A DNA stretch of 64,000 bases from Craspedostauros australis (lineage: Eukaryota): the NCBI GenBank assembly GCA_030167865.1, contig JALAGF010005473.1:1-64000 (forward strand), written 5' to 3'. Shown here one piece after another: positions 5,294 through 59,941 of the stretch. The first letter of the stretch is position 1. Every line of letters starts with the position of its first letter. Made by a program: the position numbers and the translations under genes. The notes beneath the pieces were generated by a model. It worked only from the letters and a program-made list of their open reading frames with translations, had not been told where the DNA came from and did no database searches.

Positions 5294-6486
5294 TCAGAGA
5301 GCGACGAAGTCCACCAATGTCGCTCGATCCATGTATGAATCCACTTGTGCTGCACCCTCATCCTCATCTACAACCTTGTACAGCTCCATCATGGACATAC
5401 AACTGTACTCATCATCAATACCATCGCTCTCCGCTCCCCCACCGCGGAGGACATGAATGTCTCTCATCAGTTGGGGTTGCAGAATCAGCTTGCTGAAATC
5501 TGGATGGGTTAACATATCTTTCTCATTTTCAGCTGCCATTCTCATTGCTGCATCCTTCAACACCAAGCAGTTGTGATGATCAGCGAATATCAATGCATCT
5601 ATCACGGTGCTCTTGGTGAGATGCTTGCGGGCCAACTCCGCTTCAAGAACAAGTTTGAGTCGCCAGAAGCCGAACTCGTTGGCCACAAGGATCAGTTGTT
5701 GCAGATCGTCATGTTGTTGTTTCCCAGCAGTGGATTTGCCTGTTTTGGACAAGGACTCTGCCTGGCTCATTGGCGACAACTAGTAACCTAGGAATGCAAT
5801 GTAACTATGAAACTAAATTGTGAGTTGTTTTTGTATGGATGTTGCTTCATTGAGTTTCTTTGCGTTTGTTCTGCTCTCTGAAGTTTCTCCTTTTTTGGTT
5901 TGTATGGATCGTACATCCATGTTGGCGATGTTATTGATGAGGCAGGACAGTTTGAACCTATCATGCCTTTCCTCCAGGGTCCGGTTTGAAATGGAATGTT
6001 GTCCGGGGCGGTAGTGCTAGGCTTCAGTGCTTTCTGAGTCTATGATACTATCGCATCCCGCGTCCGAGGCTCGGATACCATATGATCCCACGCCTGTCAA
6101 TTGAGGGTGGGAGTTGGCTGATTTGTGTCATCATCGTCAGTGTCGCCATGAGTGTTGTTGTCAAAGGATATCTCACATGTGTAGATGCATTGGAGGACGT
6201 ATCGGACGTGTTGTGGTTGAAAGTTGGGAAGAGGGATGGTTGTTTGGATGGGTTCAGTTCTATCGTGAGCGCCATCGTGAGCGCCATCGTGAGCGCATTG
6301 ATGTTGGATTCCAGAGCTGCTCAATATCTCGATGGATGGGACAGTGACCACGAGGACTCCGGAGTTTGCCTTGATTGCGTGTTGGCTGTCCCCTTGTCCG
6401 TACAGGAAGGAAACGTCTGTGATGGCCTCAGCACGAAGAGCGGCACGACGATCTTGGTTGATGCTGATCTTGAGATGTTGTTTCAA
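5294..6486 (-). pseudogene. Disrupted BTB/POZ (+BACK-like) C-terminal half of ankyrin-BTB locus 1
   Basis: 6486-6097 encodes TDVSFLYG...IPLPNFQPQHVRYVLQCIYT. After a ~380-bp insertion, ~5712-5294 encodes LQQLILVANEFGFWRLKLVLEAEL...ALIFADHHNCLVLKDAAM. The halves are contiguous in the paralog at 17358-18221. There is a further frameshift near 5305. Confidence 0.8.
5713..6096. mobile_element. ~380-bp insertion of unknown type splitting the BTB domain
   Basis: Absent from the paralog, which reads PTLNGQHNLQQL contiguously. AT-richer than its flanks. The ends are only weakly inverted (CAGCAGTGGATT / CAGGCGTGGGATC) and no TSD is seen. Confidence 0.45.
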
Positions 6487-7746
6487 CTAAAGTTTCAGTT
6501 GTTCGTCCTCCCGTTGACTTGTCGAGAGCATGCGCTGCATTTCTTCCTTCTGCTGTTCCAACTGCTGCTTCAGTTGGTCGTTCTCCTGCTCCTTCTGATT
6601 CAACTGCTGCTGCTGCTGTGAGTTGCAGTGACTCAGATGATTGAGATGGCTTATCATCTTGAATTGAAGTGTTGCGTCGATCATATGGAGGGGCGTTTTG
6701 TTGTTGTTGTTTTGGATGTTGATGTTGGCATTGGCTGATGCAACGAGGTACTCGACACACTCCAGGTGGCCGTTGGAGCATGCCTTATGAAGGGGAGTGG
6801 AACCATGGGTACTTTGGCAGTTGATGTTGGCCGCACCTGATTCGATGAGGTACTTCACACACTCCAGGTGACCCTTGTCACATGCCTGATGAAGGGGAGT
6901 GGAACCACCGTTGTTTTGGCAGTTGATGATCGCCCCACATGAATTGATGAGGTACTTCACACACTCCAGGTGACCTTCGTAGCATGCATCATGGAGGGGA
7001 GTGAAACCATTGTTGTTTTGGCAGTTGGCGTCAACCTTGCATGACTCGATGAGGTACTTCACACACTCCAGGTGACCTTTGCAGCATGCCTCATGGAGGG
7101 GAGTGTCACCATTGTTGTTGCTCCAGTTGGTGTCCGCCCCGTATGATTCGATGAGGTACTTCACACACTCCAGGTGACCTTCGTAGCATGCCCAATGGAG
7201 GGGAGTGGAACCATTGTTGTTTTGGCAGTTGGCGTCAGCCTTGCATGATTCGATGAGGTACTTCACACACTCCAGGTGGCCTTCGCAGCATGCCCGATGA
7301 AGGGGAGTGGAACCTTTGTTGTTTTGGCAGTTGGCGTCGGCCTTGCATGATTCGATGAGGTACTTCACACACTCCAGGTGGCCTTCGCAGCATGCCCAAT
7401 GGAGGGGAGTGGAACCATTGATGTTTTTGCGGTTGGCGTCGGCCCCGCATGATTCGATGAGGTACTTCACGCACTCCAGGTGGCCTTCGCAGCATGCCCG
7501 ATGGAGGGGAGTGGAACCTTTGTTTTTGCGGTTGGCGTTGGCCTTGCATGATTCGATGAGGTACTTCACGCACTCCAGGTGGCCGTTGTAGCATGCCCGA
7601 TGAAGGAGAGTCCAACCATCGCTGTCTTTGCAGTTGACATCAAATACTTCATTCTGCGTAGTGTTCTGCTTCTTCCATTCCTTCAACACCCACAAGTGAC
7701 CTGCACAGGTAGCAGCAAAGAGTTGCTGGTTGGAAACATTCGGCAT
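6487..7746 (-). CDS. Ankyrin-repeat protein, locus 1 (N-cap, 9 repeats, Q-rich coiled coil). An in-frame TAG separates it from the BTB frame
   Basis: Repeats GxTPLHxACxxGHLECVKYLIESC with a 102-bp period (7629-6715). The ORF 6486-6097 continues in the same frame directly after the TAG at 6489-6487. Confidence 0.9.
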   Translation of the reverse strand: MPNVSNQQLFAATCAGHLWVLKEWKKQNTTQNEVFDVNCKDSDGWTLLHRACYNGHLECVKYLIESCKANANRKNKGSTPLHRACCEGHLECVKYLIESCGADANRKNINGSTPLHWACCEGHLECVKYLIESCKADANCQNNKGSTPLHRACCEGHLECVKYLIESCKADANCQNNNGSTPLHWACYEGHLECVKYLIESYGADTNWSNNNGDTPLHEACCKGHLECVKYLIESCKVDANCQNNNGFTPLHDACYEGHLECVKYLINSCGAIINCQNNGGSTPLHQACDKGHLECVKYLIESGAANINCQSTHGSTPLHKACSNGHLECVEYLVASANANINIQNNNNKTPLHMIDATLQFKMISHLNHLSHCNSQQQQQLNQKEQENDQLKQQLEQQKEEMQRMLSTSQREDEQLKL

Positions 7747-8190
7747 TTTGAGAGGATGGTGGATGGTTGCTGGACGATTGACGTTGGACGGTTGACGTTG
7801 GATTGGCTGTCAAGGAAGTGTGCAGTTGGAGCTATCTATGGCAGAGGTATCGATGGTGGTGTATGCAACGGCTTGAATTATTATGGGTGCCATTCACTGT
7901 GTGATGAGAATGCTTGGCAATTCGGCGCCTGCAGTTGATGTGCTCGAGCATGGTGTTGAGTGGTGTGTGTGGTTGGTTTGTTCGCATGGTCTTCCCTTTC
8001 TCTCTTTGTGCACCAGTATCTTTATGTTTGCCTCCTCTTGATCGCGCCCCTTTGGTTCGTGTGGCTTGTCTGTGTGTGCCTCCTTCCCTTGATCGCACCC
8101 CTCTGGTTCTGGTTCAAATCCTTCTGTTCCCATCCATCATGAAAACGAGAATGGACAACAAGAAAGGAAGAAGGAAGGAAACACGCTCCG
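7747..8190 (-). repeat. Upstream/5'UTR segment shared by the three ankyrin loci (copy 1)
   Basis: Homologous to 10357-10740 and 19307-19650 (for example ttttgagaggatggt, gatatcgatggtg, cactgtgtgatga, cttgatcgcaccc, gaaggaaac). Confidence 0.8.
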
Positions 8191-9417
8191 AACACGACAG
8201 TGTGGGATCATTCCAATGACCGGCATACGACCCCATCCAGGGTTCGCACGTAAGTTTGTGCCGATCTTTAACTCAAGCATTTAGATCATCCTATTATGGT
8301 GTAGAGAGTATCTGGGTGAAGTTACAAGCTCCTGGAACCTGTAGTTACAACGAATACAGTTTTCGCATTAGTCTACAACTAGAAACGTTGAGCATGCGGA
8401 CGTGGAGGGCCAACTTGGATTCGCAATCGCCAGTCGTGCTAAAGCTTGATTTCCAGTCGTGCCCATCATCGACAGACTCACATTTTGTGTGGGTGAGGCG
8501 GTTGGTTTCGAAGAAATGTTGAGGATTGCACAGTGGTGGTAGGCATGATGAGGCTGCTGCTTCGTCTGGACCGTGGATCAGTTGCTGAAATCAAGAGTTG
8601 TGGGTTGATGGGTAATCCAGATCTTGACCCCCAGCTTGACTTTGACACTGCCTTGTTCTCGGTTCTGCCGTCGTTCGTGGTCCGTGACGTTGAGAATCGT
8701 CCAAGTCCCAATCAGCACACACTGCCTTCCCTTCAAATGCCCAATCAATAGTACAGCCTTGTCCTCGCTTCAGGTCTATTCCCTGCCTGTTTGTTTGGAC
8801 CTCCTCTCTGCTTGTCATCGCCAACAGCCATTGTTGGCTTCTGGCTGTTGTTCATCTGCTCTCCTCTCAACTTCTTACTTCGGTGTCAATGAACCTGCAA
8901 GCACTCGAATCACAACACAAGAAACAACAAGGAAAACAACACTACCGCCACCAGTTTCTTTCCGCACCATGCCAACAGTTCAGCATATGACCATGGCGTC
9001 CCTTGTCCAAGGGGAGCAAAGCAGGCTACGCAGGACTTGTACTAACAAACTCGGCTTAGCATTAAATCATATTATATTTGTGTACCATAGGATAGGTCAC
9101 TGTGCTCCATTACATTACATTTTAGAATCTTAGATTGTGTGGTATTCGCAAGTATTTCTGTTGCTGTGCACGTGGACGTGAAGAGATGCCTCCACCAACG
9201 CTGTGCTGCTTGACACAACACACACACAAGGGAGAAAGCACACAACAGAGCCAAATCACCAACAACACGAGGCATCAACATGACACCGAACCTGCCACAA
9301 CTTCACCATCAACACCGTTGGATACCATTGCACTATCGACGCCTGAATAGGATCCTACGTTGCCAATTATGAGATGCACCATCGATCTACTCGAGGGGGT
9401 GTTTCGTTGTCGTTGTT

Positions 9418-10356
9418 TCAGATGTCGGTATCGGCCCCACATGATTCGATGAGGTACTTCGCACACTCCAGGTTGCCGTTGCAGCGTGCCCAATGAAGGG
9501 GAGTCCAACCATCGTTGGTTTTGCAGTCGATATTCGCCCCACATGATTCGATGAGGTACTTGATACACTCCAGCCGGCCCCAGCAGCATGCGTAATGAAG
9601 GGGAGTGAAACCATTGTTGTCTTTGCCATTGATATTCGCCCCACATGATTCGATGAGGTACTTCACACACTCCAGGTGGCCGTTCTTGCATGCCCGATGA
9701 AGGGGAGTGAAACCATCGTTGTCTTTGCTGTTGATATTCGCCCCACATGATTTGATGAGGTACTTCACACACTCCAGGTGGCCTTCGCAGCATGCCTGAT
9801 GAAGGAGGGTGAAACCCTTCCAGTTTTTGCTGTTGATGTTCGCTTCACATGATTCAATGAGGTATTTCACACACTCCAGGTGGCCGTTCTCGCATGCCAC
9901 CTGAAGGGGAGTGTAACCATAGTTGGTTCTGCAGTTGATGTTCGCTTCACATGATTCGATGAGGTACTTCACACACTTCAGCTTGCCGTTGGAGCATGCC
10001 CGATGAAGGAGAGTCCAACCATTGTCGGTTTTCAAGTTGATGTTTGCTTCACATGATTCAACAAGGTACTTCACACACTCCAGGCGGCCGCTGTAGCATG
10101 CCTGATGAAGGGGAGTGGAGCCATCCCTGTCTTTGCTGTTGATGTTTGCTTCACATGATTGGATGAGGTACTTCATACACTCCAGCTGGCCATACATGCA
10201 TGCCAGATGAAGGGGAGTCTGCCCACCAGTGTCTGTGACCTTGTTGACATCAACTCCATAATACTGTGTCTGGATCTGCTTCTTCCATTCCTTCAACACC
10301 GACAAGTCACCTGTTATGACAGCATAACGGAGTCGTTCGTACGTAACATTCGGCAT
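9418..10356 (-). CDS. Ankyrin-repeat protein, locus 2 (N-cap and 8 repeats); C-terminus truncated, no BTB recognisable
   Basis: Same MPNV...LKEWKKQ N-cap and 34-aa repeats. TGA falls where locus 1 has Gln; a degenerate NNDNETP remnant follows and homology then ends. Confidence 0.88.
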   Translation of the reverse strand: MPNVTYERLRYAVITGDLSVLKEWKKQIQTQYYGVDVNKVTDTGGQTPLHLACMYGQLECMKYLIQSCEANINSKDRDGSTPLHQACYSGRLECVKYLVESCEANINLKTDNGWTLLHRACSNGKLKCVKYLIESCEANINCRTNYGYTPLQVACENGHLECVKYLIESCEANINSKNWKGFTLLHQACCEGHLECVKYLIKSCGANINSKDNDGFTPLHRACKNGHLECVKYLIESCGANINGKDNNGFTPLHYACCWGRLECIKYLIESCGANIDCKTNDGWTPLHWARCNGNLECAKYLIESCGADTDI

Positions 10357-10740
10357 TTTGAGAGGATGGTCGATGGTTGATGTTGGACGATTAGCGTTGG
10401 ATTGGCTGTCACGGAAGTGTGCAGTCTGAGCTATTACACCTATGGCAGAGATATCGATGGTGTGTCTTCAATAGCTTGTATTAGTATGAGTACCATACAC
10501 TGTGTGATGAATATGAGTGGCAATTCGATGTCTGTTGTTGATGTGCTCGAGTATGGGGTTGAGTGGTGTGTGTTGTCTTGTTCGCACATGTCCTCTCTTT
10601 CTCTCTTTGCGCACAAGCATCATCGTGTTTGCCTCCTTCTCTTGATCGCACCCCTCTCTGGTTTGTGTGGTTTGGATCCTTCTGTCCTCATCCATCACGG
10701 AAATGCACACAGACAACAAGGAACGAAGGAAACGCGGCCC
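10357..10740 (-). repeat. Upstream/5'UTR segment shared by the three ankyrin loci (copy 2)
   Basis: Very similar to 19307-19650 and recognisably similar to 7747-8190. Confidence 0.8.
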
Positions 10741-13223
10741 AAGAATTACAGAGTTCTGTTTTGTGGGTCTTCGAAAACCGGGTCACTTCTGGACATAATT
10801 GACTGGTTGATACAGACGACCCATACGACTCCAGGGCACCACCCGCAGGAAGAAGACGGGAACGCAGCGGGAATGCAAGTCGTACGCACGACTCCCCAAC
10901 AGAGACCCGACACAACGGTTATAACGGCCACACATGGGCTGATCGCTTAAGTAATGACAATTCAAACCATGTGCGACAACGGCCATCTGATGGCAATGCG
11001 GAGCTCACAAAATGGACGACTGCGACGACAAAACCGAAACACAAGCAAAAATTCGGGAACACGGAATGCACTATCTTGAGTAGCATTACAAACCCGCCAG
11101 AAGAGATGCAATCGGATAGTGAAGCAAGATTAAGACCCGCTCCGAGCAAATGAGAAACAAAGGAGGCCAAACGCGAAGGATCGAGGAGTCCAAAACAGAA
11201 AGAAAGAAGAAAGAGAGAGTAAACAACAAAGCAGAGAAGCGACGGAACAGCGACGGTCGAAGCACCCACAATTTGGAAAAGACAACAGAATTGTCACACC
11301 TTCGCTTCGAAAGACGCTTCCTCCAACGCTTCAAAATTTTTAACCCACCTTCCCGCCCTTTGGGGATTCCAGCGCTCTCCCTCCAACCATGATCGAATCA
11401 GTCAACACCAACGCAAACAGCCGAGGCAGAGACCAGAGACGAACTTGGCCAGGAGGGATCGAGCCGGATGATCCAAGGCAAGCTTGGAGGTGCTAGTAAA
11501 CCTACCACCCAACGCAGACAAAAGCTATGTGACTATGGATTAGCCCGAATCTTCGACTGATTCGACTATGAGTAAAACCACCAAAGAAGATCAATGTTTG
11601 CGTGGACGTTTGTCGAAGCACAACGAATGCGAGAGATCGTTGATGGTCAAACCCAAGTGGTTCGAAATGGTCGTTCAGTGTTTCTGTTGGCCTGAGCGGT
11701 CTTTCGGCTCGAGTCTGCCTCCAACAACTCGACTTCAGTCACAATCAACACCACATCAATTTGAAGCAAACAACGTGAAAGTCTCTGGAGACAGAGAGAC
11801 AGAGGGAGCTGCCATCACCACGGGCCACGCTTGCTTGCGTCATCGTGGCATCTGCAAGACCACCGACGCTCGTCCGCCTACCATCACAAGCACCAACTTG
11901 AGGTTCGAACCAATGCCTCGAACAACGATGAAGCCACTGATGTGACTGCGTTTGTTGGTTGCCTTTGTTGGCCGCGACCCATCCCATTTGGATTTGGCTG
12001 GTTGCCATCCCACCGCATTGCAACCATCACCATCCGCACAGGCAATAAGAGTCCTCAACATCCAACCAACACCCCATTGCGTATTGGGATGAGGTGATAC
12101 CGTGCCGCCTCCACTGTTCCTGCCGCACGGACCACCAACATACAATACCATGCGCATTCTATCTTGAGGCATGAGCGCCGCCGTCTTGGCTCGTGACTTC
12201 CAGAGCATCGATGCTCCATCAAGGCGATCGACAGGAACATCCACCTCACGAATGAAGTTGGGAGCACCACGAAGGAGGACATGTGGGTGTACGGTATCCA
12301 TGGGCCATGGATCGCTGGCCGTGTGCTTCTTGTACCAAAATGGATCTCTGTGTCAACCATGATCCGCAATACAGTACTTGCACTCTGCATGGGGTTGCTG
12401 GTTGGTTCGTTGGTTCGTTGGTTGGTTGATTTCTTCTCTTGCTCGTCAAGCTCTCTGGATGCTTGGACTGCGCTGGCTCGTCAATTCTTGTCCTTCCGCC
12501 ACGCTGGCACTGATCGCTTCGAAGATTGGAATGGATGGTGACCCTGGCATTTGTTGCTCCAACGGCGAGTGATCAGTCCTCCTGGGACTTGGCAAGGGTC
12601 TCGACTGCAGTTTTGGCACAATGGTGGGAGTGCAACTCCTGGAGCGATGAGGACAATAGGGCGATACGGGACGGTCGATGGAATCGCGTAGCAACCATGC
12701 TCCTCGTGGCTTCTCACCATTTCCCTCTGCCTTGTTCGCCATGTGTTCTTCGTAGATCGCCTCTTCCACAAACTTGGATCGGCTGGCATCGGCACTGTCG
12801 CTTTCAATCTGCTTGGCAGTGTGACTTCGAGTAGAGTGCTCTGTGTGTGAATCCGGCGGCACGGCGACGACCGCACGGCTTGTGAAAATGGTGCTGCCAT
12901 GCATCCTTTGTCTGCGCAAGGAATTAACAACGATGCTGATGGCGGAGTATGGATGGAACCACGGACGTCCAATCTGCTCGTGAATGACATTGGCAACATC
13001 CCTGTGTGCGTTTGTACTGCAGAGAGCAGACCAGACTAGTCGTAGACAAGGCGGAGGCAGCATGGGAGCAGTACCCAGCCCTTCCATCTCTTGGAACATC
13101 CAGTGCCTTCATCACAGCGTTCTATTGCACGAGCAGATAAAGTGCATGCGGTACTGTTCCAACCATACAGATTATAGAGCATTACAGTCTATTCGTAGGT
13201 GTATTACATACAGGGATGTGGAT

Positions 13224-15651
13224 CTACCACACCGTCAGGAGTATGATACGAGTACGGAGCGGCCCACACATCTCATTCCATCCCATCGTGTCGTGATGCA
13301 TCACGGGTGGGAGTTTGGTACCATTCATCGAGCGATCGCAGTACTGAGACGCGCTCTTGCTCCTGACCGCTTTCTTTGGTGTGAGTTGCAGTGGCTTTGT
13401 GCCAGATATCTTCTCATGGTAGACAGCATCGCGTGTCGACGATCTGCTTCGTCCACGATGATTTGATTGAAGGGCCTGCGTGATGACGAACGTTTGTTGC
13501 CATGCTGTTGTTTGCAATGCCGTCCATCTTCATCTCTCTCATTGTTGTGCCGTTCGACGCTGTAATTTCGATATCCTCTTGATCTGCTTCGTTGTCGCGC
13601 CGATGGTGATCGTTCATCGGAGGACTTCCTTCGCTGATCTTCGTCGCGTGGTGTCGATTGGCTACGGCCACGTTGATTTGGTCTTCGCGAACTTCCTCGG
13701 GCATGCTTTCGGGAAGGTGAGCCCTTGGGCCGTTGCAAACCAGTCCCAGCGGAGTGCGCATTTGAATTGGTTTCGCGTGAACGCGAGGCTGCGTTCATAT
13801 CATCCGAACTGCCAGATGTTCGTTGTCTCTGCGATGATGGTGATGAGTCCATCGATAGTTGCGCAGTTCTTCTACAACAGCGATCGGACGGCTTTCGGCG
13901 ACTCCGCGCCGATGGCGAGCGGCGGCTTCTTCCAGAAGAGGAAGTGTGAAATTCTCCGTCACGACGATGACGCAATGATGTCGAATGCTCCACACTCTTT
14001 GATCTTGACGATGTCGAGTGCAGCTTGCCACTGGTGTGCTGTGCGCTTCTCCGCCAATGCCGTGGCGATGGTGATATCGATGGTAATATCAATGGCGATG
14101 GTGATGACACGTCTCTTGTTTTGCTGGAGTGGTGATGTCGGGGCCCATTGCCAAGCACCTTGGAGATCCTTTCCTTGATCGCTTCTCATCACACAGACCA
14201 CCCGTGCTTCGTCCGCGTGAACGTCGTTGCTTTGAGTCTTCGCTTGGGCGCAACGAACTGCGTGCGGATCTGTTGCGAGAAGGAGCCACCTGGTCCTTCT
14301 TGCTCGATTTCAATTCGATTCCCAAACTCAAGGCTCCAGGACTGGATGAGGCTTGGGGTGCGGTCGAGACACCTCCTTGTTCGCGCTCGCGTTCGAATCG
14401 TTGAAGATTGAGTTTGGATTTGGACTGTGTTAATGATGGCGACGATGATGGTGCCTTTGCGGATGCTTTGGTCAAGGCAAGATCAGCCAATTGCGATGGT
14501 CGAGATTCGAGAGATGGTCGTTGCATCGATTTGCCGGGATTTGTTGACGACACTTCACGTCATGATGATTGTTTGGCCTTGAGGATGCTTTCTGACGTCG
14601 ACCTGCGCTTGTTCAACAATGAAGATTGTTGTCTCTATTCATGTGTGTGGCTGAAGGGGAAGGGGGCTGGTGTAGATGCCGCGCTCTGACCTCCAGGCGT
14701 GACAGGGACCACAGAGCTTCTCCCACCGTTCGTTGCAGCAGCACTTGTCGCAACATCGACGCTGCCATCATCGTCGTCGTGGAGACTTGGCAGATTGGAC
14801 AGTGACTCCAGGCTCTTGCTGCGTGACTTCTTCGATCTTGCAACTCGAGATAGATCCGGGATGCTGGCTGCACTCATCGCGCCTGGTGTGTCTGATGTGT
14901 ATGTTGTGCCTGGCATGTTGTGTCCGTCCTTCAAGAATTTCAAGGATTCCAAACTCTTGCTCCTCGATTTGTCGCTGCTGGTCGTTCCGTTGGAATTCGG
15001 TTGTGGCCTTGGCCTACGTCTCCAACTCTGGGCAACCTTCGTCTTGTCTTGGTTGATCCGTTCATGGGTCGCGCCGAGTGCTGGGACTGTGGCGAAGCTG
15101 AGTCCATCTGGGGTGTTTATGGCCGGTATCGATTTGTTGGTGTTGAACTTGCTGGGATCAAGGGAGCTGAATGACATCTCGTGAGCTTGCATGTCGAGCA
15201 TGTCCAGACTCTTCGCATGTGATCGTTTCACAGCCGAAGCTTTCGCATCTTTGGCTGCACTTCTATTGGCGCTGCTCGGTGTATCTGTGCTGACACTCGC
15301 ACGACCACCTGATTTTGCGGCTGCTCTGGCTTCTTTGGCAACGCCAGTGGGCTTGCTCGCCTTCGATTTTGTATCGGCCTGCTGCGGTTGCGGTTGCGGT
15401 TGCTTGGTCTCCGTTTGTTTCTCCGCTATCCATCTGACCCCGTCCTCTTCCAGCAACTTCGATCGTCATGACCTCATGACCGCACGAAGGTTCGAACAGA
15501 GTATCAGGCTGGACGCCCTGCTGTGGCAACTCCCAGAGTAGATCGTACTCATGGAAGGTTCGATACTCATAGTCGTACGACGAGTGGGTAAAGATGCGGA
15601 GCAACTGGCGAGCCTTCCCACAATGCCTCTTGGATGTCGATGCGCCATCAT
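13224..15651 (-). pseudogene. Decayed gene for a long Ser/Arg-rich low-complexity protein
   Basis: ORFs 15651-15466, 15456-14635 and 14553-14089 share one frame, broken by TGA (15466), TAG (14635) and TGA (14560). Frameshifts near 14190 and ~13500 link to ORFs 14158-13325 and 13517-13224. Internal repeat (K/R)SxSKSLESL. Confidence 0.55.
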
Positions 15652-15660
15652 CTTGTCTGA

Positions 15661-15722
15661 TTGTTTGTGTTTGTGTTTGTGTTGGTGTTGGTGTTTGTGT
15701 TGGTGTTTGTGTTTGTGTTTGT
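15661..15722. repeat. (TTGTGT/TTGGTG)n hexamer microsatellite
   Basis: Directly visible tandem hexamers. Confidence 0.9.
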
Positions 15723-15969
15723 GGTATCAATGTGAAGGGATGCGGCATCGTTGGAGTGGTCGCCATCACCCTCACAATCATCGAACAGAGTTGCGTTGCA
15801 TGAAGACAACAGCGAGATGTTGGTTGTGGGTGTTTGTGTGTGGTACTGGTTGAATGAAGCACGGACGGCAGACAGACGAATACCACCAAACGCGCCAAAA
15901 ATTCTTGACACCACCCAAAACAACGAATCTTCGATTTTGCGTCGTGATCCATCAAACGACTTCAACACA

Positions 15970-16005
15970 AAGAGAGAGAGAGAGAGAGAGAGAGTGAGAG
16001 AGAGA
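15970..16005. repeat. (GA)n microsatellite
   Basis: Directly visible. Confidence 0.9.
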
Positions 16006-16115
16006 TGAAATGGTATGACCATGTTTGCATTGATGGAGGTATCACCCAACACTGAGACATTGTCTGTCAAGCAACGAAGCAATGAAGTAATCAAGCAAGC
16101 GGCGGCTGCACAAAT

Positions 16116-16922
16116 ATGGCACACCAACCAGAATCAACAAAGGCGGCCATGGCAAGAGACGATGATGCCGATGATGATGCTGATGATGATGATCATGCCG
16201 ATGGTGAATGACGAGCAGTGATGAACAGCGATCTCAAACTTGTCGCATCACTCAGCGACATCAGAAAGGAAGATATCAAACCAACTGCTCCGGATTAGAG
16301 ACGAGCTTGGGACATGGGCAATGGCAGCGCCAACAACAGAACCAACTGTAATGGCAAGACATGTCATGGCCCATGGTGCGGTCTGGATTCAAGTCATCAG
16401 CAGCAGGATCCACGCACATAAACGTCCGATGCGCTGTCGGCAACGGAGATTCAGCACATGCTGGACGGGTGCATCCGGGAGATCGGCCGCAGCGACTTCT
16501 TTCGAGACCTGCAGAGCCATCAGCTCGGAGATATTCCTCAGGTGCAACAACACGCACCACAACCAGGCACGCCTGTTCATGCCGATGCTCGAAGCGGTGC
16601 GTCGCAGCCACAAACCGCAAACGATGAGACAGAGGCACTGTCTCGTCACATCCACAGATGAGAGATATCGTGTGCAATGACATCGGCAACTTCTCCCATT
16701 GCTCGTCATCTTTGTCGGCCGTACCTATCGAAAACCATGCAACCGCTGGCATACGCTTGTGCCCTGCGTGACATCATGCACGAACTGCAGCACCACCAAC
16801 AACAACAAGCTGACAGTCGCAGTACGCTCCACTTCATCAAGTTGGATTCGATTCCAACAAGCCATGCATGATGCCCGCGGGGTCCGCCGTCGTTTCCCAC
16901 GCAGCTCCTTCCACACCAATGA
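16116..16922 (+). pseudogene. Possible decayed gene with a poly-Asp N-terminus
   Basis: One frame from ATG 16116 reads MAHQPEST...DDDADDDADDDD...EIQHMLDGCIREIGRSDFFRDL...LRDIMHELQHHQQQQ, with stops at 16209, 16296, 16419, 16659, 16869 and 16920. Stop density is only modestly below random. Confidence 0.3.
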
Positions 16923-17357
16923 AACCAACGAACGAACGAACGCGGAAACCATACTATATGATCGGCAATGACGACCACGACAATAACAACAGTGGCTGAA
17001 CCATCTTCTTCATGTCATATTGACCAGTGATGCTGCACGCCAACGTGCCGTGCGCCAACCGGGATCCTCTGCAATTCATGCACAGAAGACCATGCGTATC
17101 TCGCGGATTAGCCAGACCGTGCTGCGAACGACATGGGAGTGCATGGGGCAGCATGTTGTGTGGATCACCAAAGGCGACGGTCAAGGCATGCCGGACGCAC
17201 CATTGAATGATTGGATCTCAAGTTGCTCCAGCTCCTTTCACACAGTTACTGTCCTAATGACTATTCTGATGACTAGTCTTATCCATCAACTCAATTCTGT
17301 CATGCGTTCACTTCTCCAAGACTGCTGTTATGGTGTGGCATGGCATGGTCTGGCGCT

Positions 17358-18221
17358 TCACTCCTCTTCTTCAGCAGCACCGTCCGTCTCAATCATTTTG
17401 GATGATTTGGTAGTCAAAGAGCAGACGAAGTCCACCAATGTCGCCCGATCCATGTATGAATCCGCTTGTGCTGCACCCTCGTCCTCATCTATGACCTTGT
17501 GCAACTCCACCATGGACATACGAGTGCACTCGTCATCATTACCATCACTCTCGGCTCTCCCACTGCAAAACACCTGGATCTCCGTCATCAGTTGGGGTTG
17601 TAGAATCAGTTTGCTTAAATCTAGATGAGTGAACATATCTTTCTCACTTTCAGCTGCCATTCTCATTGCTGCATCCTTCAACACCACACAGTTGTGTTGA
17701 TCGGCGAATATCAATGCACCTATCATGGTGCCCTTGGTGAGATGCTTGTGGACCAACTCTGCTTCAAGAACAAGCTTGAGTAGCCAGAAGCCGATCTCGT
17801 TGGCCACCAGGATCAGCTGTTGCAGATTATGCTGTCCATTGAGGGTGGGAGTTGGCTGGTGAGAGGCATCTGTATCGTGGTGAGCGCTGGTGTGAGCGCT
17901 GGTGTGAGCGCCGACGCGAGCAGCAGCGTTGTCACGAACGCTGTCATGAAAGGATATCTTGGCTGTGTAGATGCATTGGAGGACGTATNNNNNNNNNNNN
18001 NNNNNNNNNNNNNNNNNNNNNNNNNNNNNNNNNNNNNNGTCATGAAAGGATATCTTGGCTGTGTAGATGCATTGGAGGACGTATCGGACGTGTTTTGGTT
18101 GAAGGTTGGGAAGAGGGATGGTTGTTTGGATGGGGGCTGCACCGTCGTCAGTGCCATCATTCGTGTGGTGATGTTGGATTCCTTTGTCGATCAGTGTCTC
18201 AATGGATGGGACAGCGATCAT
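17358..18221 (-). CDS. BTB/POZ (+BACK-like) domain ORF of ankyrin-BTB locus 3 (spans an N-gap); frameshifted from the ankyrin ORF
   Basis: IPLPNLQPKHVRYVLQCIYT...LILVANEIGFWLLKLVLEAEL...ALIFADQHNCVVLKDAAM. The frame stays open upstream to ~18328 (FQTENRPDTIFVCGQ), homologous to locus 1 LRAEAITDVSFLYGQ. Confidence 0.8.
   Translation of the reverse strand: MIAVPSIETLIDKGIQHHHTNDGTDDGAAPIQTTIPLPNLQPKHVRYVLQCIYTAKISFHDXXXXXXXXXXXXXXXXXYVLQCIYTAKISFHDSVRDNAAARVGAHTSAHTSAHHDTDASHQPTPTLNGQHNLQQLILVANEIGFWLLKLVLEAELVHKHLTKGTMIGALIFADQHNCVVLKDAAMRMAAESEKDMFTHLDLSKLILQPQLMTEIQVFCSGRAESDGNDDECTRMSMVELHKVIDEDEGAAQADSYMDRATLVDFVCSLTTKSSKMIETDGAAEEEE
17989..18038. other. Assembly gap (50 N) flanked by an identical 46-bp duplication
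   Basis: 17943-17988 is identical to 18039-18084, consistent with unmerged overlapping contig ends. Confidence 0.9.
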
Positions 18222-19306
18222 AAGGGCTTCGGCGTTTGTCTTGGTTGGTTGTTGTCGGTCGTCCTGTCCACATACGAAGATGGTGTCTGGCCTGTTCTCG
18301 GTTTGGAAGGATCTGAGCTGTCTTCTTCAATGTTGATTTTGGTCCTCTTGTGGCTGCTGTGTTTGCGTTCATTCTCTTGCTTCTTTCGCTTCAACTGCTG
18401 TCCCAACTGTTCTTGTGGCTGTTCATTTGCTTGCTCGTTTTGTTGTAAGCGTTGCTGCAGTTGTTGCAGTTGTGGGTGAACTGAAGGCGAAAGTCCTCTG
18501 ATGAGGGACTCGATACACTCCAGATCGTCGTTGTCGCATGCGAGATGAAGGGGAGTGTGGCCATTGTTGTTTTGGCAGTCGATGTTCCCCCCACATGATT
18601 CGATGAGGTACTCCACACACTCCAGGTGACCCTTGTCACAAGCCTGATGAAGGGGAGTGGAACCACCGTTGTCTTTGCAGTTGATGTTCGCCTCACATGA
18701 TTCGATGAGGTACTCCACACACTCCAGGTGGTCGAACATGCATGCCTGATGAAGGGGAGTGCGGCCATCGTTGTTTTTGCAGTTGGCATTCGCCCCACAT
18801 GATTCGATGAGGTACTTCACACACTCCAGCTTGCCGTTCATGCATGCCACATGAAGGGGAGTGAAACCATAGTTGCTTTTGCAGTTGGCATTCGCCCCAC
18901 ATGATTCGATGAGGTACTTCACACACTTCAGCTTGACGTTGTGGCATGCCTCATGAAGGGGAGTGTAACCTTGTTTGTTTTTGCAGTTGACGTTCGCTCC
19001 ACCTGATTCGATGAGGTACTCCACACACTCCAGGTGGCCGTTGTAGCATGCATAATGAAGGGGAGTCCAACCATAGTTGTCTTCGCAGTTGATGTTCGCC
19101 TCACATGATTCGATGAGGTATTTCACACACTCCAGGTGGCCGTTGGAGCATGCCAGATGAAGGGGAGTGGAACCAAACTGGTTTGTAACCTTGTTGACAT
19201 CAACTCCTTTCGTCTGTGTAGTGTTCTGCTTCTTCCATTCCTTCAACACACACAAGTCACCTCTGAAGGAAGCATCACGGAGTTGTTGCTTCGTGACATT
19301 CGGCAT
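18218..19306 (-). CDS. Ankyrin-repeat protein, locus 3 (N-cap, 6 full repeats and 1 terminal repeat, Q-rich coil)
   Basis: Same N-cap and repeat consensus as loci 1 and 2. The stop overlaps the BTB ATG (ATGA at 18221-18218). Confidence 0.9.
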   Translation of the reverse strand: MPNVTKQQLRDASFRGDLCVLKEWKKQNTTQTKGVDVNKVTNQFGSTPLHLACSNGHLECVKYLIESCEANINCEDNYGWTPLHYACYNGHLECVEYLIESGGANVNCKNKQGYTPLHEACHNVKLKCVKYLIESCGANANCKSNYGFTPLHVACMNGKLECVKYLIESCGANANCKNNDGRTPLHQACMFDHLECVEYLIESCEANINCKDNGGSTPLHQACDKGHLECVEYLIESCGGNIDCQNNNGHTPLHLACDNDDLECIESLIRGLSPSVHPQLQQLQQRLQQNEQANEQPQEQLGQQLKRKKQENERKHSSHKRTKINIEEDSSDPSKPRTGQTPSSYVDRTTDNNQPRQTPKPL

Positions 19307-19650
19307 TTTGACAGGATGGTCGATGGTTGCTGGACGATTGATGTTGGATTGGCTGTCGAGGAAGTGTGCAGTCTGAGCAATTATACCTTTGGCAGAGATA
19401 TCGATGGTGTGTCTTTAATAGCTTGTATTAGTATGAGTACGAGTAGCATGCACTGTGTGATGAATATGAGTGGCACTTCGATGTCTGTTCTTGATGTGCT
19501 CGAGTGTGGGGTTGAGTGGTGTGTGCTGTTGCCTGCGTTTGCCTCCTTCTCTTGATCGCACACCCCTCTGGTTCGTGCGGTTTGGATCCTTCTGTCCCCA
19601 TCCAGCACGAAAATGCGTGCGACCAACAACAAGGAAGGAAGGAAACACGT
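19307..19650 (-). repeat. Upstream/5'UTR segment shared by the three ankyrin loci (copy 3)
   Basis: Homologous to the upstream regions of loci 1 and 2. Confidence 0.8.
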
Positions 19651-21160
19651 CCCCACCACAACAAAGTCGTGTCTCGCACACCGCTGAAACCCGAGCCCTC
19701 GACTGGTACGACTGGGATGAAGGCCATCGAAGAAGATCGAAGGGTTGTGTTGGATCCATGTAGTCGTAAGGAAAAGGTGGAAACCCAAAGGAGACCCAAA
19801 ACTATGTACATCCATCGGTCCATAAAACCTGAAAAAGGACCAACCGCAGAACTTCAATGGATCATCGTATGTTTAGATCTACAAGGATTACAAGTATGTG
19901 CTTAGTTTGAAAATCCCAGCAGAAATGCACGGCGGTTCATTTCAAAGTGCAGGTCGACTCGCTCGAGGGGCTCCTAGTACAGCAGAACAGGACAGAGTGG
20001 GCTAGAGGGGTGGCCGCTATTGCACTCGTACGAGCTGCCATACACTGTCATAAACTCTATAGCTCGTACGATCTATTATACCTACAAGCACGCGCATGAT
20101 GGCATAGTTGATCAATCCAATCCAATGCCATCATCATCTTCCTCTTCTCCTTTTCCTTCTCCGTTGCGCGGCTGTGTCCTCGTTTGGGATGTCGGTGGTT
20201 GGCTGGTTGTCCCTCTTTTGTTTGAATCTGTTGCGGTTGGCTATCTTCAACTCGTGTTTGGTTGATGTCATGTCGAGAAGCATGAATAATGTAGTATGAT
20301 TGGACAACGACCGTCACAATACGACACAAAAGCGACACGACGACAGGCTAGTTTTTCTTCGCCAGGCGTCCCCATTTTTTGACGACAATAATGTCAAGCA
20401 GGTAGTCCACTGCAAATACGTGTCACAGCGTAACCGCCAAATTTTTTGTGCAACGTGGCCGGAAGCGCAGGTACTGAATTGTGTTGTTGGTTGTTTTGAC
20501 GCCCATTTTGAAACTCTCGTGTGTTTGCAAGCAGACTTTGTCCATTTGGTGGGACAAGTTGGAGGGACAAGAGAGAGAGAGAGTGTGGGTGCGAGAGTGG
20601 GACGATCCTTGAGTGATGTTGAGAGAGAAAGTGAGAGCTGACCGCATCGAGAAAGACGCAGAGGCCGGTTCCACAAAGTCAACGCAACGCATCAAAGAGA
20701 GAGAGAGAGAGGCAAGAACGGCATCAAGAAAGAAGGGACATTCCACAAGCACGAGCAACAGCACCAATTCGTCGCCTGTGCGGATACGACCAAGACAGAG
20801 GCAGAAGACGTCTGCACGAACAGAGGTGTGTGGGGAGGGCAGAGGTGTGCTGCCGTTCTTCCACGATCGTGGACGATCTCATTGCGTGACCAGGGCGAAG
20901 GCGCTCGGTTTGCCAGAGAGGCATACTCGATTTGAGCAGCGTCCTCGCAATATAGCATTACATCATATACTAGTGACTGCAGAGCGACGAGGAGATACAC
21001 GCAAGCAGACCAAGACAAGCCAGGACGGTCGTGGAAGGAGCACTCTATTGGAGCATACATCATATATTGGAGCATAGTGCATATATTGGAGCACGCAGCC
21101 ATCACAATACTGATACAATACTGATACAATACTGATTCTATTGATACTCAAGAAAGCAGA

Positions 21161-23995: not shown

Positions 23996-26098
23996 CTACA
24001 GATACGTCGATGTATCTCGCAGCAAGGCCCGGCGCCTATTCTTGGCTTCGCGCGCCGCGGCCTTGGCCTTATCCTTCTTGTGCTGCTTCGGTGTCTTCTT
24101 TGGGCTGGACGACCGTGGCTTGCGATTCAAGTCCGGCGGCGGGATCACCGGATTGGGCTTCGTCCCATTCGTCACGAAGTACTGCACGAATTGTTCGGGT
24201 ATGTCCTTCAATCCGTCCGCCACCACCTCGCTGGCGTTGCCGGCAAATCGTTTGAAGCTCACAAAGTGGACGATGTCACGAGCGATCGGGACGTTGCGAG
24301 AATCCCGCATGGGACCCTTCTCGTTGGTGCAGGCGCGTTCGATCGCGGAAAAGTCGCGGTTGCCCACGCCGATGATAACGATGGACAGCGGGGCGTCCTC
24401 CGCAGCGGCGCAAATGAGATCGATGGATTCCTGGAGGTCCGTGATGCTGCCGGTGGTGAAGACGCACAGTATGGTGTAGCTCTGCCGGTTCTTGCACGAT
24501 CGGATGGCACGGAACGTGGTGGCCTCGATCAGCGGCTTCAGCCGGACGCCGGTTTCGCCCAATGCGAACTTCTTGTTCTTCGCGATGCTGCTGTCGTACG
24601 TCTGGAGCATCTCGCGGGCTTCGACGAGGCGATCGGCCATCATGAAGACGTCCTGGTCTTCGCCGTCGACCTTGCCTCCGAATCCCCACATCGAGGAATG
24701 GCGCCCGCGTGCGAAGTTCTCCATGATGGAGCCGAACTTCTGGATGCCGGCTTGGTAGTCATTCAGCCAATGGCTCGCGCTGTGGTGCAGGCCTTGTACG
24801 CCCGTGCCGTTGTTGATGCTGCAATCGATGCCGATCATGAGGTCGAGGGAGCAACCGCCGCTGAGATGCTCAAGCATGGATGGGATGGTGAGGACGTTGG
24901 CCTTGAGGACCTTCATGAGGCCCACCGGCTTGGGTTTGGAACCACCGAACCACTTCCTCCGCTCGCGCATGACCTGAAAGACCGGGATGCCATCGATCTT
25001 GGCCTTGGCCTTTTCGACGAGCTCGTTGACTGTGGACTCTACGTATCCCATGTGATCGTGCTGTGTGGAATGCTTCTCGTAATCCCAAATCGTGACCTTG
25101 ACGGGATCGCGGCGAAACCCATTGCACAGCAGCTGCAACGGCAACCGCGCCACCTTCCATGTGGGGCTCAGCGAATCCTTGACGACCTCCGACTTCCACA
25201 CCACTTCCCAGCTCTGATCATCCTTGCGCAGCTTCTCCACCTGGAAGTACGGATTGGACTTGTCCAGCACTTTCGATTGGTCGAGCAGACTCTGTTGCTT
25301 GATCAAGTCCTGACATGAGAACCTGAATTCCAGCACTTCTCTCGTGTCCACGATCTCTGCATTCATCCGTTGGTTGGTGTCGGTGTCGGAGGCATGAAAG
25401 GAGGAAAAGTGGAGAAGTTGGGCAAGACAAGCAAGGCAAGGCAAGACGGGCAAGGTGGGCAACGAGGAAGAGGGAGAATGATGGCGGTGGTCAGTATGGG
25501 CAACGCGCGCGAGTTGGAATGAAACAGAGGAGGATACTCTACCAATACGAGTGGAGGGCACTGTTATGCCTCGAGCAGTGGTACCACAACGAGTACACGC
25601 GGTGGTATGGTACGCACCATCTCCCGTGATGACGAGGAAGGACTTATCCCGACCCAACCGCTTGAGGATCGTGCGTCCCTTGGCTCCCAGCAGCTGCCCC
25701 AGCGTGAAGATGCACCCTCCGAGGTAGTGGTGCTCGTTGAGGTCCGTGATCATGTTGAGATCTTCGCTGTACACGCGCAGGATGTAGGTCTGCTCTTCGT
25801 TGAACGTGAAGTCGAGCGGGAACTTGGTCTTGAAGGTCGGATTGGCGACGCCGTTCTGCGTCTCCGTCCGGTTGATCTCATCCTCCTGGCGGCCGGGCAG
25901 GTTGGATGGCATGCCCTTGATCATCGGCGGGGTGTAGCCATTGGGGACCCTCCACAGCACGCAGAAGGCATCGGCCTGGCTGAGCAGGTCCTTCTTGGGG
26001 AGGCGTTTGCATTGGATGACGAGCTCGACCTTGATGATCGGCGCAGTCAGCCGCGATGGCCACGCGAATTTGGAGAAGTCCTTTGACTTGTACTTCAT
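23996..26098 (-). CDS. Copine (C2-C2-vWA). Exons 26098-25618 and 25356-23996, with an in-frame 261-nt intron
   Basis: C2A (CKRLPKKDLLSQADAFCVL...NPTFKTKF), C2B (DKSNPYF...WKSEVVKDSLSPTW) and vWA (MIGIDCS...WGFGG...APLSIVIIGVGNRDF...ARDIVHFVSF). Intron G|GTGCGT...TGCAG|AG. Confidence 0.92.
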   Translation of the reverse strand: MKYKSKDFSKFAWPSRLTAPIIKVELVIQCKRLPKKDLLSQADAFCVLWRVPNGYTPPMIKGMPSNLPGRQEDEINRTETQNGVANPTFKTKFPLDFTFNEEQTYILRVYSEDLNMITDLNEHHYLGGCIFTLGQLLGAKGRTILKRLGRDKSFLVITGDGAYHTTACTRCGTTARGITVPSTRIGRVSSSVSFQLARVAHTDHRHHSPSSSLPTLPVLPCLACLAQLLHFSSFHASDTDTNQRMNAEIVDTREVLEFRFSCQDLIKQQSLLDQSKVLDKSNPYFQVEKLRKDDQSWEVVWKSEVVKDSLSPTWKVARLPLQLLCNGFRRDPVKVTIWDYEKHSTQHDHMGYVESTVNELVEKAKAKIDGIPVFQVMRERRKWFGGSKPKPVGLMKVLKANVLTIPSMLEHLSGGCSLDLMIGIDCSINNGTGVQGLHHSASHWLNDYQAGIQKFGSIMENFARGRHSSMWGFGGKVDGEDQDVFMMADRLVEAREMLQTYDSSIAKNKKFALGETGVRLKPLIEATTFRAIRSCKNRQSYTILCVFTTGSITDLQESIDLICAAAEDAPLSIVIIGVGNRDFSAIERACTNEKGPMRDSRNVPIARDIVHFVSFKRFAGNASEVVADGLKDIPEQFVQYFVTNGTKPNPVIPPPDLNRKPRSSSPKKTPKQHKKDKAKAAAREAKNRRRALLRDTSTYL

Positions 26099-26347
26099 CT
26101 CAACCCTTTGCTCCTTTTGTTCCTATTGGCCTTGCTATTGGAGGTGCTATTAGGGTTGCCGCCACTTCGCTTGCTCTCCTGGTCTCCTGATTGTTGCCGG
26201 TCACGGTCATTCCGATGATTCCTCCAAAACTCCGTCCGCCATTGTCGATGTTGCCGTTGTCGTACTCAGCCGGGGTTACCAGCGTGTTGTGGTGCGTTTC
26301 GCTGTTGGTGTGCGTTTTGCGCCATCTTCCCAGAATTTATTCGTGTC

Positions 26348-44179: not shown

Positions 44180-44371
44180 GGTTCTTTGAGCTTTCCTCGT
44201 CTTGGGCACGCCGTGCTGTCGAACTGTCGTACTCTCCAGATAGATCTTCGTCTGCGTGGATGTGGCGTCTAATGGCGAGTTCGGCGTGGACCTGAGCGAT
44301 GAAGACACACCTCAAGTCAGGGATGATGCTGTCGCCAGCGTTGGTAACAACAGTGATGGGGATGTTATTCT

Positions 44372-59143: not shown

Positions 59144-59941
59144 GGTTGCCGGTTGCTTGGCTGCCTGGACACTGATGCGCAGGGTGGATCAGGATGGCAC
59201 GAGCAAGGCCCTATCTTTCCTGAATGACCCGAGTCCTTCTCCCTGTGAAAGGCGATGGTGGCGATGACTCGTATTATATGACCTACTCTCCGCGATGCTG
59301 TATCTGCTATGGCGGACAAGGCTGTCTCCAATCTATTGGCATCGCAACAAACCAGGTCGTACCATCCGAGCTGCGAGCATCAATGTCTCTCTCTCTCTCT
59401 CTCTCTTTGTTGCCCTCGTGTGTTGGTGCTCCAACGAAGCTCCTTCCGTTGGTTTTGCTGCTTTTTGGTTTCGGTGCTTCGTGAAACGGTCACAAATCTG
59501 CCCAACTTTTGGGCACGCGAATGACTCGTGACTGAGGCGTTTCAACCTGTTTTACGGGATTGATACCGAACACGTGAATGAGAAGTCGTGGAGGTCTTCC
59601 TCGATGAGACACAACACGTGTTCCCAACAACAACGGCTAAACAAAGTCACACGTCGGAGTGATTACGAACAACCGCTTCGGCGGAGGCGAAAAGGGAAGC
59701 GAAAGGAGAGACAACAAACAGTCCGAATGTCTTCGGCAACATCTCATGGAATAGCACAATACGTACTCGACGCTCCACTACTCCACTACTAGACCGTGCG
59801 CCATACTCCTGATCATTGCGGAGGTGTAAACAATTCCGTCTTTGGCAGTTACAAGCGCACCAAAGCATCTCGTCGATAGAAGCAAGGGAGCCAGTCGATC
59901 AATTACTAACAAGGAACCAAGCTGTTGAGTCTCAGGCGACC

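Follow-up and report, generated by a model that had tools for sequence, protein, structure and literature searches.

In the window analysed here—the whole 64,000-nucleotide stretch at positions 1 to 64,000 of contig JALAGF010005473.1 (assembly GCA_030167865.1)—three paralogous genes on the minus strand encode tandem arrays of 34-residue ankyrin (ANK) repeats. We consider it probable that these genes are a local cluster of a lineage-restricted, diatom-type ANK-BTB-BACK family, in which the arrays diversify by repeat turnover and by selection on their surface, and of which the copies at this locus are themselves in turnover. The variation among the repeats bears most directly on this reading and is presented first, followed by the BTB-BACK tails and relatives of the three genes, the alternatives that have to be weighed and the known systems with which the family can be compared.

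The ankyrin arrays and the variation among their repeats

Tandem Repeats Finder (TRF) delimits three arrays with a 102-bp period, at 6745-7636 (8.8 copies, 85% matches), 9434-10218 (7.7 copies) and 18500-19175 (6.6 copies), each of which sits inside a single minus-strand open reading frame (ORF). When the translations are cut at the motif G-x-T-P-L-H, paralog 1 yields nine full repeats and a degenerate cap, paralog 2 eight repeats, the last truncated by a stop, and paralog 3 seven. The two approaches agree with each other and with a preliminary description of this DNA, which had counted 9, 8 and 7 tandem repeats in three paralogs; the sets of residues that it had listed for the variable positions of G-x-T, H-x-A and AC-x-x are likewise found as stated in the repeat alignment. 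The genes and the region ahead of them are laid out as follows:

6487..7746, minus strand: paralog 1, a 419-aa ORF with N-cap, nine full 34-aa repeats, degenerate C-cap and Q-rich linker, ending at an in-frame TAG
9418..10356, minus strand: paralog 2, a 312-aa ORF with N-cap and eight repeats, the stop lying within repeat 8
18218..19306, minus strand: paralog 3, a 362-aa ORF with N-cap, seven repeats and Q-rich linker, whose frame enters the BTB region out of register
7747..8070, with counterparts at 10357-10740 and 19307-19653, minus strand: upstream region common to the three paralogs (blastn identity 75-81%)

The arrays are preceded by an N-terminal cap (MPNV...LKEWKKQ), and their repeat unit of 34 residues is one longer than the canonical 33. 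Pfam ankyrin models (Ank, Ank_2, Ank_4 and related) match all three proteins at E 1e-77 to 1e-120, in 7-10 stretches each. Within the window the repeats occur nowhere else: a 32-base framework string has 22 matches at up to three mismatches, every one inside the three arrays (0 expected from 100 shuffles), and a tblastn comparison of the window with itself returns only the arrays and two downstream tail copies. At the DNA level the paralogs are 75-84% identical, including the 300-400 bp 5' of each ATG, a conserved stretch that may represent a shared promoter or 5' untranslated region. An extra upstream piece at 8066-8199 matches 19529-19663 and 10625-10728.

For the codon analyses we used 22 repeats, leaving out the degenerate P1r10 and P3r7 (repeat 10 of paralog 1 and repeat 7 of paralog 3) and the truncated P2r8. 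Overall, the proportions of synonymous and nonsynonymous differences among these repeats (pS and pN) are 0.227 and 0.194, respectively, and pN reaches 0.50-0.63 at columns 2, 7, 10 and 11 of the repeat. Diversity is 0.128 at seven fourfold-degenerate sites, vs. 0.57-0.75 at the replacement positions of columns 2, 7 and 10. The preliminary description had called the framework nearly invariant even at synonymous sites, which holds insofar as the framework is uniform and its synonymous sites vary less than the hypervariable codons do, but goes too far in view of the pS and the fourfold diversity just given. The codon that is fixed also varies by column, i.e., Leu is CTT, CTG or CTC (columns 5, 14 and 20), Gly is GGT or GGC (columns 1 and 12) and Ala is GCA or GCG. 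Because one amino acid is fixed on different codons in different columns, codon bias was ruled out as the cause of the synonymous conservation in the repeats, which, on this comparison of codons, is to be attributed to descent or exchange.

Selection was assessed with our own GY94-type likelihood, which has a single shared synonymous rate and in which the classes of columns were set beforehand. The first class (columns 2, 10, 11, 31, 33 and 34) is equivalent, by our own mapping, to what we take to be the library positions of designed ankyrin repeat proteins (DARPins); its omega (the ratio dN/dS of nonsynonymous to synonymous rates) is 2.06 on a maximum-likelihood (ML) tree (p=9e-4) and 3.22 on a star tree. 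The second class, matched to the ANK-N5C library (columns 2, 7, 10, 31, 33 and 34), has an omega of 2.91 on the ML tree and 3.78 on the star tree. When the tree is inferred from the framework columns alone, the class omegas are higher, and only one in 25 random six-column sets is significant, that set holding four surface columns. Site by site, omega exceeds 1 at p<0.05 in five of the 34 columns (2, 7, 10, 25 and 34), with Bonferroni correction leaving columns 7 and 34, and is significantly below 1, i.e., purifying, in 14 of the 34.

The same columns stand out when repeats are compared in other ways. Specifically, whole-paralog comparisons in register give a surface-class dN of 0.71-0.87 at a dS of 0.23-0.37 (ratios 2.0-3.2), and between P1r6 and P1r4, which are recent duplicates within paralog 1, five of the six replacement changes fall at columns 2, 7, 10 and 11. 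In 33 repeats taken from relatives of the window genes, the columns that vary most are again the same (Spearman 0.80); the framework of those repeats is much less uniform than that of the window's. The site-wise check that had been proposed for the aligned repeats therefore comes out with dN above dS at the variable columns and with variation that is uneven across columns, and these patterns support diversifying selection, as read from codons, on the surface columns of the array.

That these columns are surface columns is suggested by an AlphaFold2 (AF2) model of the paralog 3 array, which is a regular solenoid (predicted local distance difference test, pLDDT, 93.4) in which a helix pair recurs every 34 residues, helix 1 occupying repeat positions 4-10/11 and helix 2 positions 14-22/24. 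In this model a helical turn separates columns 7, 10 and 11, which share one face of helix 1, with L5, A8 and C9 buried on the opposite side, and columns 2, 33 and 34 fall in the hairpin. The model thus places the variable columns where it had been supposed that they would lie, i.e., at DARPin-randomised positions on one face of the array.

The framework is, in addition, unusually rich in cysteine, with four per repeat (columns 9, 16, 24 and 30) and more than 30 in paralog 1. Among the repeats of relatives it is mainly C9 that is common, C24 is present in part and column 16 is Ile or Val. Such a Cys-rich framework could be a packing ladder or a metal or redox feature.

BTB-BACK tails, lesions and relatives

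The tail that follows the array can be recognised downstream of paralogs 1 and 3, in pieces:

6487..6489, minus strand: first lesion of paralog 1, a TAG between linker and BTB; array, TAG and BTB share one frame
6100..6483, minus strand: N-terminal half of the paralog 1 BTB, from the family alignment and Pfam BTB (20.8 bits, cut-off 20.5)
6097-6099, minus strand: second stop of paralog 1, a TGA after the N-terminal half of the BTB; GGA at the paralog 3 equivalent
about 5717..6093, minus strand: insertion of ~377 bp that splits the paralog 1 BTB, without GT-AG boundaries, from the alignment to paralog 3
5294..5770, minus strand: C-terminal half of the paralog 1 BTB, BACK-like helices and C-terminal tail, from the family alignment and sub-threshold Pfam BACK_BPM_SPOP and BACK matches
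about 18275..18330, minus strand: lesion of paralog 3, a net loss of 1 nt within 54 nt after 'KINI', from alignment, translation and base count against paralog 1
17358..18326, minus strand: BTB, BACK and tail of paralog 3, in a frame other than that of the array and interrupted by a 50-N gap (17989-18038)

The tails of paralogs 1 and 3 share 78% amino acid identity (tblastn) and have kept all 14 residues that hardly vary in the family alignment. Against Pfam PF00651 (gathering score 20.5), the N-terminal half in paralog 1 is a marginal pass at 20.8 bits and the N-terminal part in paralog 3 falls below at 16.1; BACK_BPM_SPOP scores 18.8-21.2 bits on the window tails, under its cut-off of 27.4. 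Neither blastn nor tblastn found a linker or BTB 3' of the paralog 2 array, where homology to the other copies stops at ~9396, some 22 bases beyond the stop. An uninterrupted reading frame across the whole BTB is present in none of the three copies, the BTB frame of paralog 3 meeting a TGA at 18327-18329. The claim that the arrays are coupled to BTB is thus sustained by ancestry and not by the present state of the genes: there are two tails for three arrays, and none is in an intact frame. Since the lesions differ in each copy, their common ancestor was an intact ANK-BTB fusion, and the three local copies now make, at best, ankyrin-only proteins.

Two of these interruptions have features of their own. 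The ~377-bp insertion of paralog 1 is single-copy in the window, and an intron was considered as its source and rejected: no GT or GC donor lies ahead of the in-frame TGA, and a contig from the sequencing run X1 (kind unspecified) runs unspliced across 5795-6207, carrying the insertion junction without a reported splice joint. An identical run of ~50 bases (coding YVLQCIYTAKISFHD) stands on either side of the 50-N gap in the paralog 3 BTB and indicates an assembly artefact from scaffolding or gap closing.

The fold of the tail was modelled on a relative, P0123, rather than on a window copy (residues 344-607, 35-row alignment; pLDDT 91.6). The best match of this model in the PDB is the BTB-BACK of SPOP (E 1e-7, ~200 aligned columns, template modelling (TM) score 0.72-0.83 on the target), followed by the KEAP1 BTB, NPR1, KLHL3-CUL3, KBTBD2-CUL3 and the vaccinia A55 BTB-BACK with CUL3. 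Judged from the relative, the tail is predicted to be an SPOP-like BTB plus BACK/3-box module of the CUL3-adaptor type. The supposition that the arrays belonged to an E3-adaptor system is borne out to this extent, i.e., the relative's tail is nearest in fold to SPOP BTB-BACK and then to the KEAP1/KLHL adaptors of CUL3.

Intact members of the family exist outside the window. Searched exhaustively and without profiles, with the tail of paralog 3 (P0121, 209 aa) as the query, a set of 1.84 billion representatives yielded 41 proteins at E<=0.001 and 16 at E<=1e-10, many of them MATH-BTB proteins. A Pfam scan of 18 of the 41 distinguished seven intact ANK+BTB proteins (434-607 aa), three BTB proteins without a called ankyrin domain, one tail-only fragment and seven more distant MATH-BTB proteins of the SPOP/BPM kind; the BTB domains of relatives P0123-P0132 score 24-34 bits. 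The intact ANK-BTB relatives have the order ANK-linker-BTB-BACK and share the N-cap and the 34-residue unit with the window copies. The named ones among them are transcripts, from Craspedostauros australis, a raphid diatom, and from one other transcriptome of the Marine Microbial Eukaryote Transcriptome Sequencing Project (MMETSP). Because these named relatives are diatom transcripts, they support a diatom-type origin of the ANK-BTB family, with intact members expressed elsewhere, and they are in keeping with the initial placement of the family in a diatom.

Repeat number also varies among the relatives. Four near-identical ANK-BTB proteins (P0129, P0165, P0166 and P0167; 449-603 aa) include three that fall in one 90% cluster, and two of the four are named Craspedostauros australis transcripts. 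Cutting P0129, P0167 and P0166 into repeats gives 4, 5 and 6, respectively, with the first two and the last two repeats in common, so that by sequence they look like repeat-number variants or recent paralogs. The closest tail relatives (P0122, P0163 and P0164; 65% identity) are tail-only ORFs on contigs of 1.5-2.7 kb that begin at a Met matching the 'MIAVPSIE' of paralog 3; split array and tail frames may recur in this sub-lineage.

Other searches added little to this set. With the ankyrin ORF as query, 5643 of 8000 scored candidates reached E<=0.001, these being generic ankyrin proteins no more than 51% identical to it, and a word-based search for longer relatives of the window tail found none among 1398 candidates. 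Scans of metagenome contigs and viral contigs for the relatives' DNA confirmed no locus and gave no sign of a giant-virus origin.

Competing explanations and the surroundings of the cluster

Several points weigh against a diversifying ANK-BTB-BACK family as the explanation of this locus. The omega tests use 22 short repeats as taxa, and exchange between repeats, which breaks the single tree, can inflate their values; the global repeat omega is 0.86, only two columns survive the correction for multiple tests, and columns 2, 7, 10 and 11 all carry the same residues in P1r8 as in P3r6. High entropy at these columns is, moreover, generic to ankyrin repeats, according to the accessible part of the ANK-N5C/DARPin literature (PMC8683736, PMC4308713). 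Within genes, repeats are on average 72%, 68% and 70% identical (paralogs 1, 2 and 3, respectively), with 86% for framework columns alone and 94% for the highest single repeat pair; internal identity of 68-72% lies below the threshold for "high internal conservation" in fungal arrays, which the accessible part of its source puts at >85% identity between repeats over at least 100 aa (PMC4986451). An intact ANK-BTB frame is found in none of the three local copies and paralog 2 has no BTB, while the tails of paralogs 1 and 3 have diverged from each other at a dN/dS of 0.46-0.64 (dS 0.42-0.46), which, from these two sequences, looks like relaxed constraint. Lastly, a word-based search with the P0123 tail found only seven proteins in 5.8 billion, and the family therefore looks small in public data.

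The alternative that best survives the evidence, though we hold it to be unlikely, is that the genes are a decaying tandem pseudogene cluster, in which the replacement excess is relaxed constraint and the locus has no current function. The three lesions in paralog 1, the frameshift in paralog 3 and the truncation of paralog 2 all favour decay, as do the global omega of the repeats and the dN/dS of the tails. Relaxation, however, pushes omega to 1 throughout, and here 14 of the 34 columns lie significantly below that value and the preset surface class significantly above it. In addition, the ankyrin ORFs stay open across 312-419 codons at ~20% divergence, and the tails, as noted, retain every one of the nearly invariant family residues. 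From the open ankyrin ORFs, the column-wise omega and the conserved tail residues it follows that any decay would be recent and mainly in the tail.

Improbable to a greater degree is that these are ordinary scaffolding ankyrin proteins in concerted evolution, such that conversion homogenises the framework and the contact residues are old and under purifying selection. Some observations agree with this: P1r8 and P3r6 carry the same four helix and turn residues, a KLKC signature is common to P2r3 and P3r3, all between-paralog repeat registers align with about equal similarity, and pS is lower in the arrays (0.18-0.29) than in the BTB tail (0.32-0.35). Yet repeats compared in register mostly differ at the surface columns, where dN exceeds dS by the margin given above, and conversion would need to pass over individual codons lying 9-15 bases from one another, unless the diversity were restored by selection. 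The recent duplicates within paralog 1, too, already differ mainly at the variable columns. Least probable of all is that the ankyrin-only products are the functional form (e.g., decoys, or proteins that regulate the intact members or the targets of these) and that the stops were selected, since the clean ankyrin-only ORF of paralog 2, the stop of paralog 1 directly after a coiled-coil-like linker and the hint of split frames elsewhere in the tail-only ORFs of P0122, P0163 and P0164, which start from the same internal Met, are set against a different cut in each copy, as independent accidents would give, and against intact fusions as the rule among full-length relatives (seven of the 18 scanned).

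We therefore return to the reading given at the outset, i.e., an ANK-BTB-BACK family whose arrays diversify and whose local copies are in turnover, and outline how it would operate. The ancestral protein would have consisted, in order, of an N-cap, the array of 34-residue ankyrin repeats, a C-cap, a Q-rich linker, the BTB, BACK/3-box helices and a short tail—a layout that would amount to SPOP with its MATH domain swapped for an ankyrin solenoid. The BTB-BACK module would dimerise and dock on Cullin-3, and the substrate would be picked by the concave, variable face of the array; we infer both by analogy, because CUL3 docking and substrate recognition are established for the SPOP, KLHL and KEAP1 adaptors. 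Duplication, loss and exchange of repeats would give rise to a framework that is uniform in its DNA and to a changing number of repeats, with diversifying selection acting on few surface residues (positions 2, 7, 10 and 34, and less clearly 11 and 25). Birth and death at the locus would then account for its present state, copy 1 having lost its BTB to two stops and the 377-bp insertion, copy 3 having suffered the 1-nt frameshift and copy 2 having lost its tail.

Of the public runs only X1 contains the locus, with 39% of sampled words present, and no RNA dataset is listed as containing it. Contigs from X1 cover the three genes and 11.9-13.8 kb, and depth is 0 in five of 30 bins, all of them intergenic; such gaps suit a transcriptome and are no proof of expression. 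The stretch at 11874-13837, between paralogs 2 and 3, shows high summed X1 depth and several half-depth variants. It has no second copy in the window, and the ORFs at 12446-13108 and 13325-14185 match no Pfam family.

Farther along the window, a Ty1/copia-type retrotransposon ORF of 1335 aa lies at 28244-32251 on the plus strand, with RVT_2, retroviral SH3-like and gag_pre-integrs domains. The neighbouring genes are ordinary eukaryotic ones, and GC content is even across the window (0.49-0.58). Those identified by Pfam are:

23996-26122, minus strand: copine with C2 domains
40543-41703, plus strand: RsmB/NOP2-type methyltransferase
42530-44311, minus strand: Obg GTPase
57344-59188, minus strand: GT90 glycosyltransferase

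Relation to known adaptor and repeat-array families

Adaptive evolution of MATH-BTB (SPOP/BPM-type) and F-box adaptor families in nematodes and plants is reported by Thomas (2006), as summarised in PMC4334554. The window family would resemble them in that a cullin-docking module is joined to a substrate-binding module that diversifies by positive selection, and in that genes are born and lost, and it approaches MATH-BTB proteins in particular, in that its tail is nearest SPOP BTB-BACK by fold and its distant sequence relatives are MATH-BTB proteins (seven of 18). It differs from MATH-BTB proteins in its recognition module, here an ankyrin solenoid: the Pfam scan found no MATH domain in the window proteins or in the seven ANK-BTB relatives, and found one only in the more distant tail relatives. 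Unlike in the MATH-BTB and F-box families, diversity here arises within the tandem array, through repeat number and the surface residues of each repeat, the host is diatom-like, and the family looks small rather than running to hundreds of genes.

A second comparison is with the repeat arrays of fungal NOD-like receptors (NLRs). As described in the accessible part of Dyrka et al. (2014; PMC4986451), the ankyrin, TPR and WD arrays of these proteins have high internal repeat conservation, and their ankyrin repeats are under positive selection at about five positions on the inner helix and hairpin of the concave face. Measured against that part of the account, the window arrays are similar in having repeats that are near-uniform at the DNA level, a variable number of repeats (9/8/7 in the window and 4/5/6 in relatives) and concave-face columns that appear to be positively selected (2, 7, 10 and 34). 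They differ in the lower internal identity discussed above, in their BTB-BACK partner domain and in a host that is not a fungus; Pfam matched no NACHT or NB-ARC domain in the window proteins or the scanned relatives.

Ankyrin arrays are carried on cullin-adaptor modules in the ASB ANK-SOCS-box and poxvirus ANK-F-box-like proteins as well. NPR1, among the fold matches of the tail model, is also an ankyrin and BTB protein, with the domain order BTB then ANK, the reverse of that in the window family, and ABTB/BTBD11 is, as far as its accessible description goes, another ankyrin and cullin-adaptor combination. The likeness to all of these would lie in an ankyrin array that binds the substrate for a cullin-RING adaptor. 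Unlike the window family, however, they are either regulators that are conserved and low in copy number or host-range factors of viruses, and we know of no homogenised array with omega >1 in NPR1, ABTB/BTBD11, ASB or the poxvirus ANK-F-box-like proteins.

DARPins are among the best PDB sequence matches of the window arrays. In the accessible parts of PMC8683736 and PMC4308713, the ANK-N5C library randomises positions 2, 3, 5, 10, 13 and 33, which are its binding surface, and four of the five window columns with omega >1 correspond to its positions 3, 5, 10 and 13. To the extent that these sources describe them, DARPins and ANK-N5C resemble the window arrays in that positions in the hairpin and helix 1 vary on a framework that is consensus-like and self-compatible. 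The window arrays are, on the other hand, natural, have 34 rather than 33 residues per repeat (the extra one following helix 2) and have a Cys-rich framework, and the likeness is an analogy of design, not family kinship.

The general idea of diversifying adaptors and arrays has already been described for MATH-BTB and F-box families and for fungal NLR ankyrin arrays, as judged from the accessible parts of those accounts. Full-text searches on ankyrin proteins of diatoms brought up no description of an ANK-BTB family of this kind, and diatom papers, in their accessible parts, mention ankyrin expansions or silica-related 'dAnk' proteins in passing only. Diatoms live under heavy virus and parasite pressure, and to our knowledge no variable intracellular receptor family is known for them. 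Against this background a bolder proposal can be made, which we regard as doubtful: that raphid diatoms possess lineage-specific substrate receptors of Cullin-3-RING ligases (CRL3), whose self-homogenising ankyrin arrays, diversifying on the concave face, serve in cell-autonomous sensing of non-self and in tagging it for degradation. The candidates for non-self would be viruses, parasites or transposon proteins, or else the receptors would act in mating or allorecognition, and the broken copies would be a by-product of fast birth and death. Any such role in non-self recognition, i.e., an immune-like role, is speculation.

The broken state of the three copies limits the interest of this particular locus. 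A family that combines a hypervariable array with a cullin adaptor would nonetheless offer a concrete candidate for bench tests and would reveal one more independent way in which ubiquitin-ligase adaptors diversify, the third after the MATH-BTB/F-box families and the fungal NLR arrays. A uniform 34-residue framework with natural "library" positions is relevant to repeat-protein design. If the proposal is true, this would be the first immune-like variable receptor family described in diatoms, with the logic of the MATH-BTB and F-box families independently re-invented on an ankyrin scaffold.

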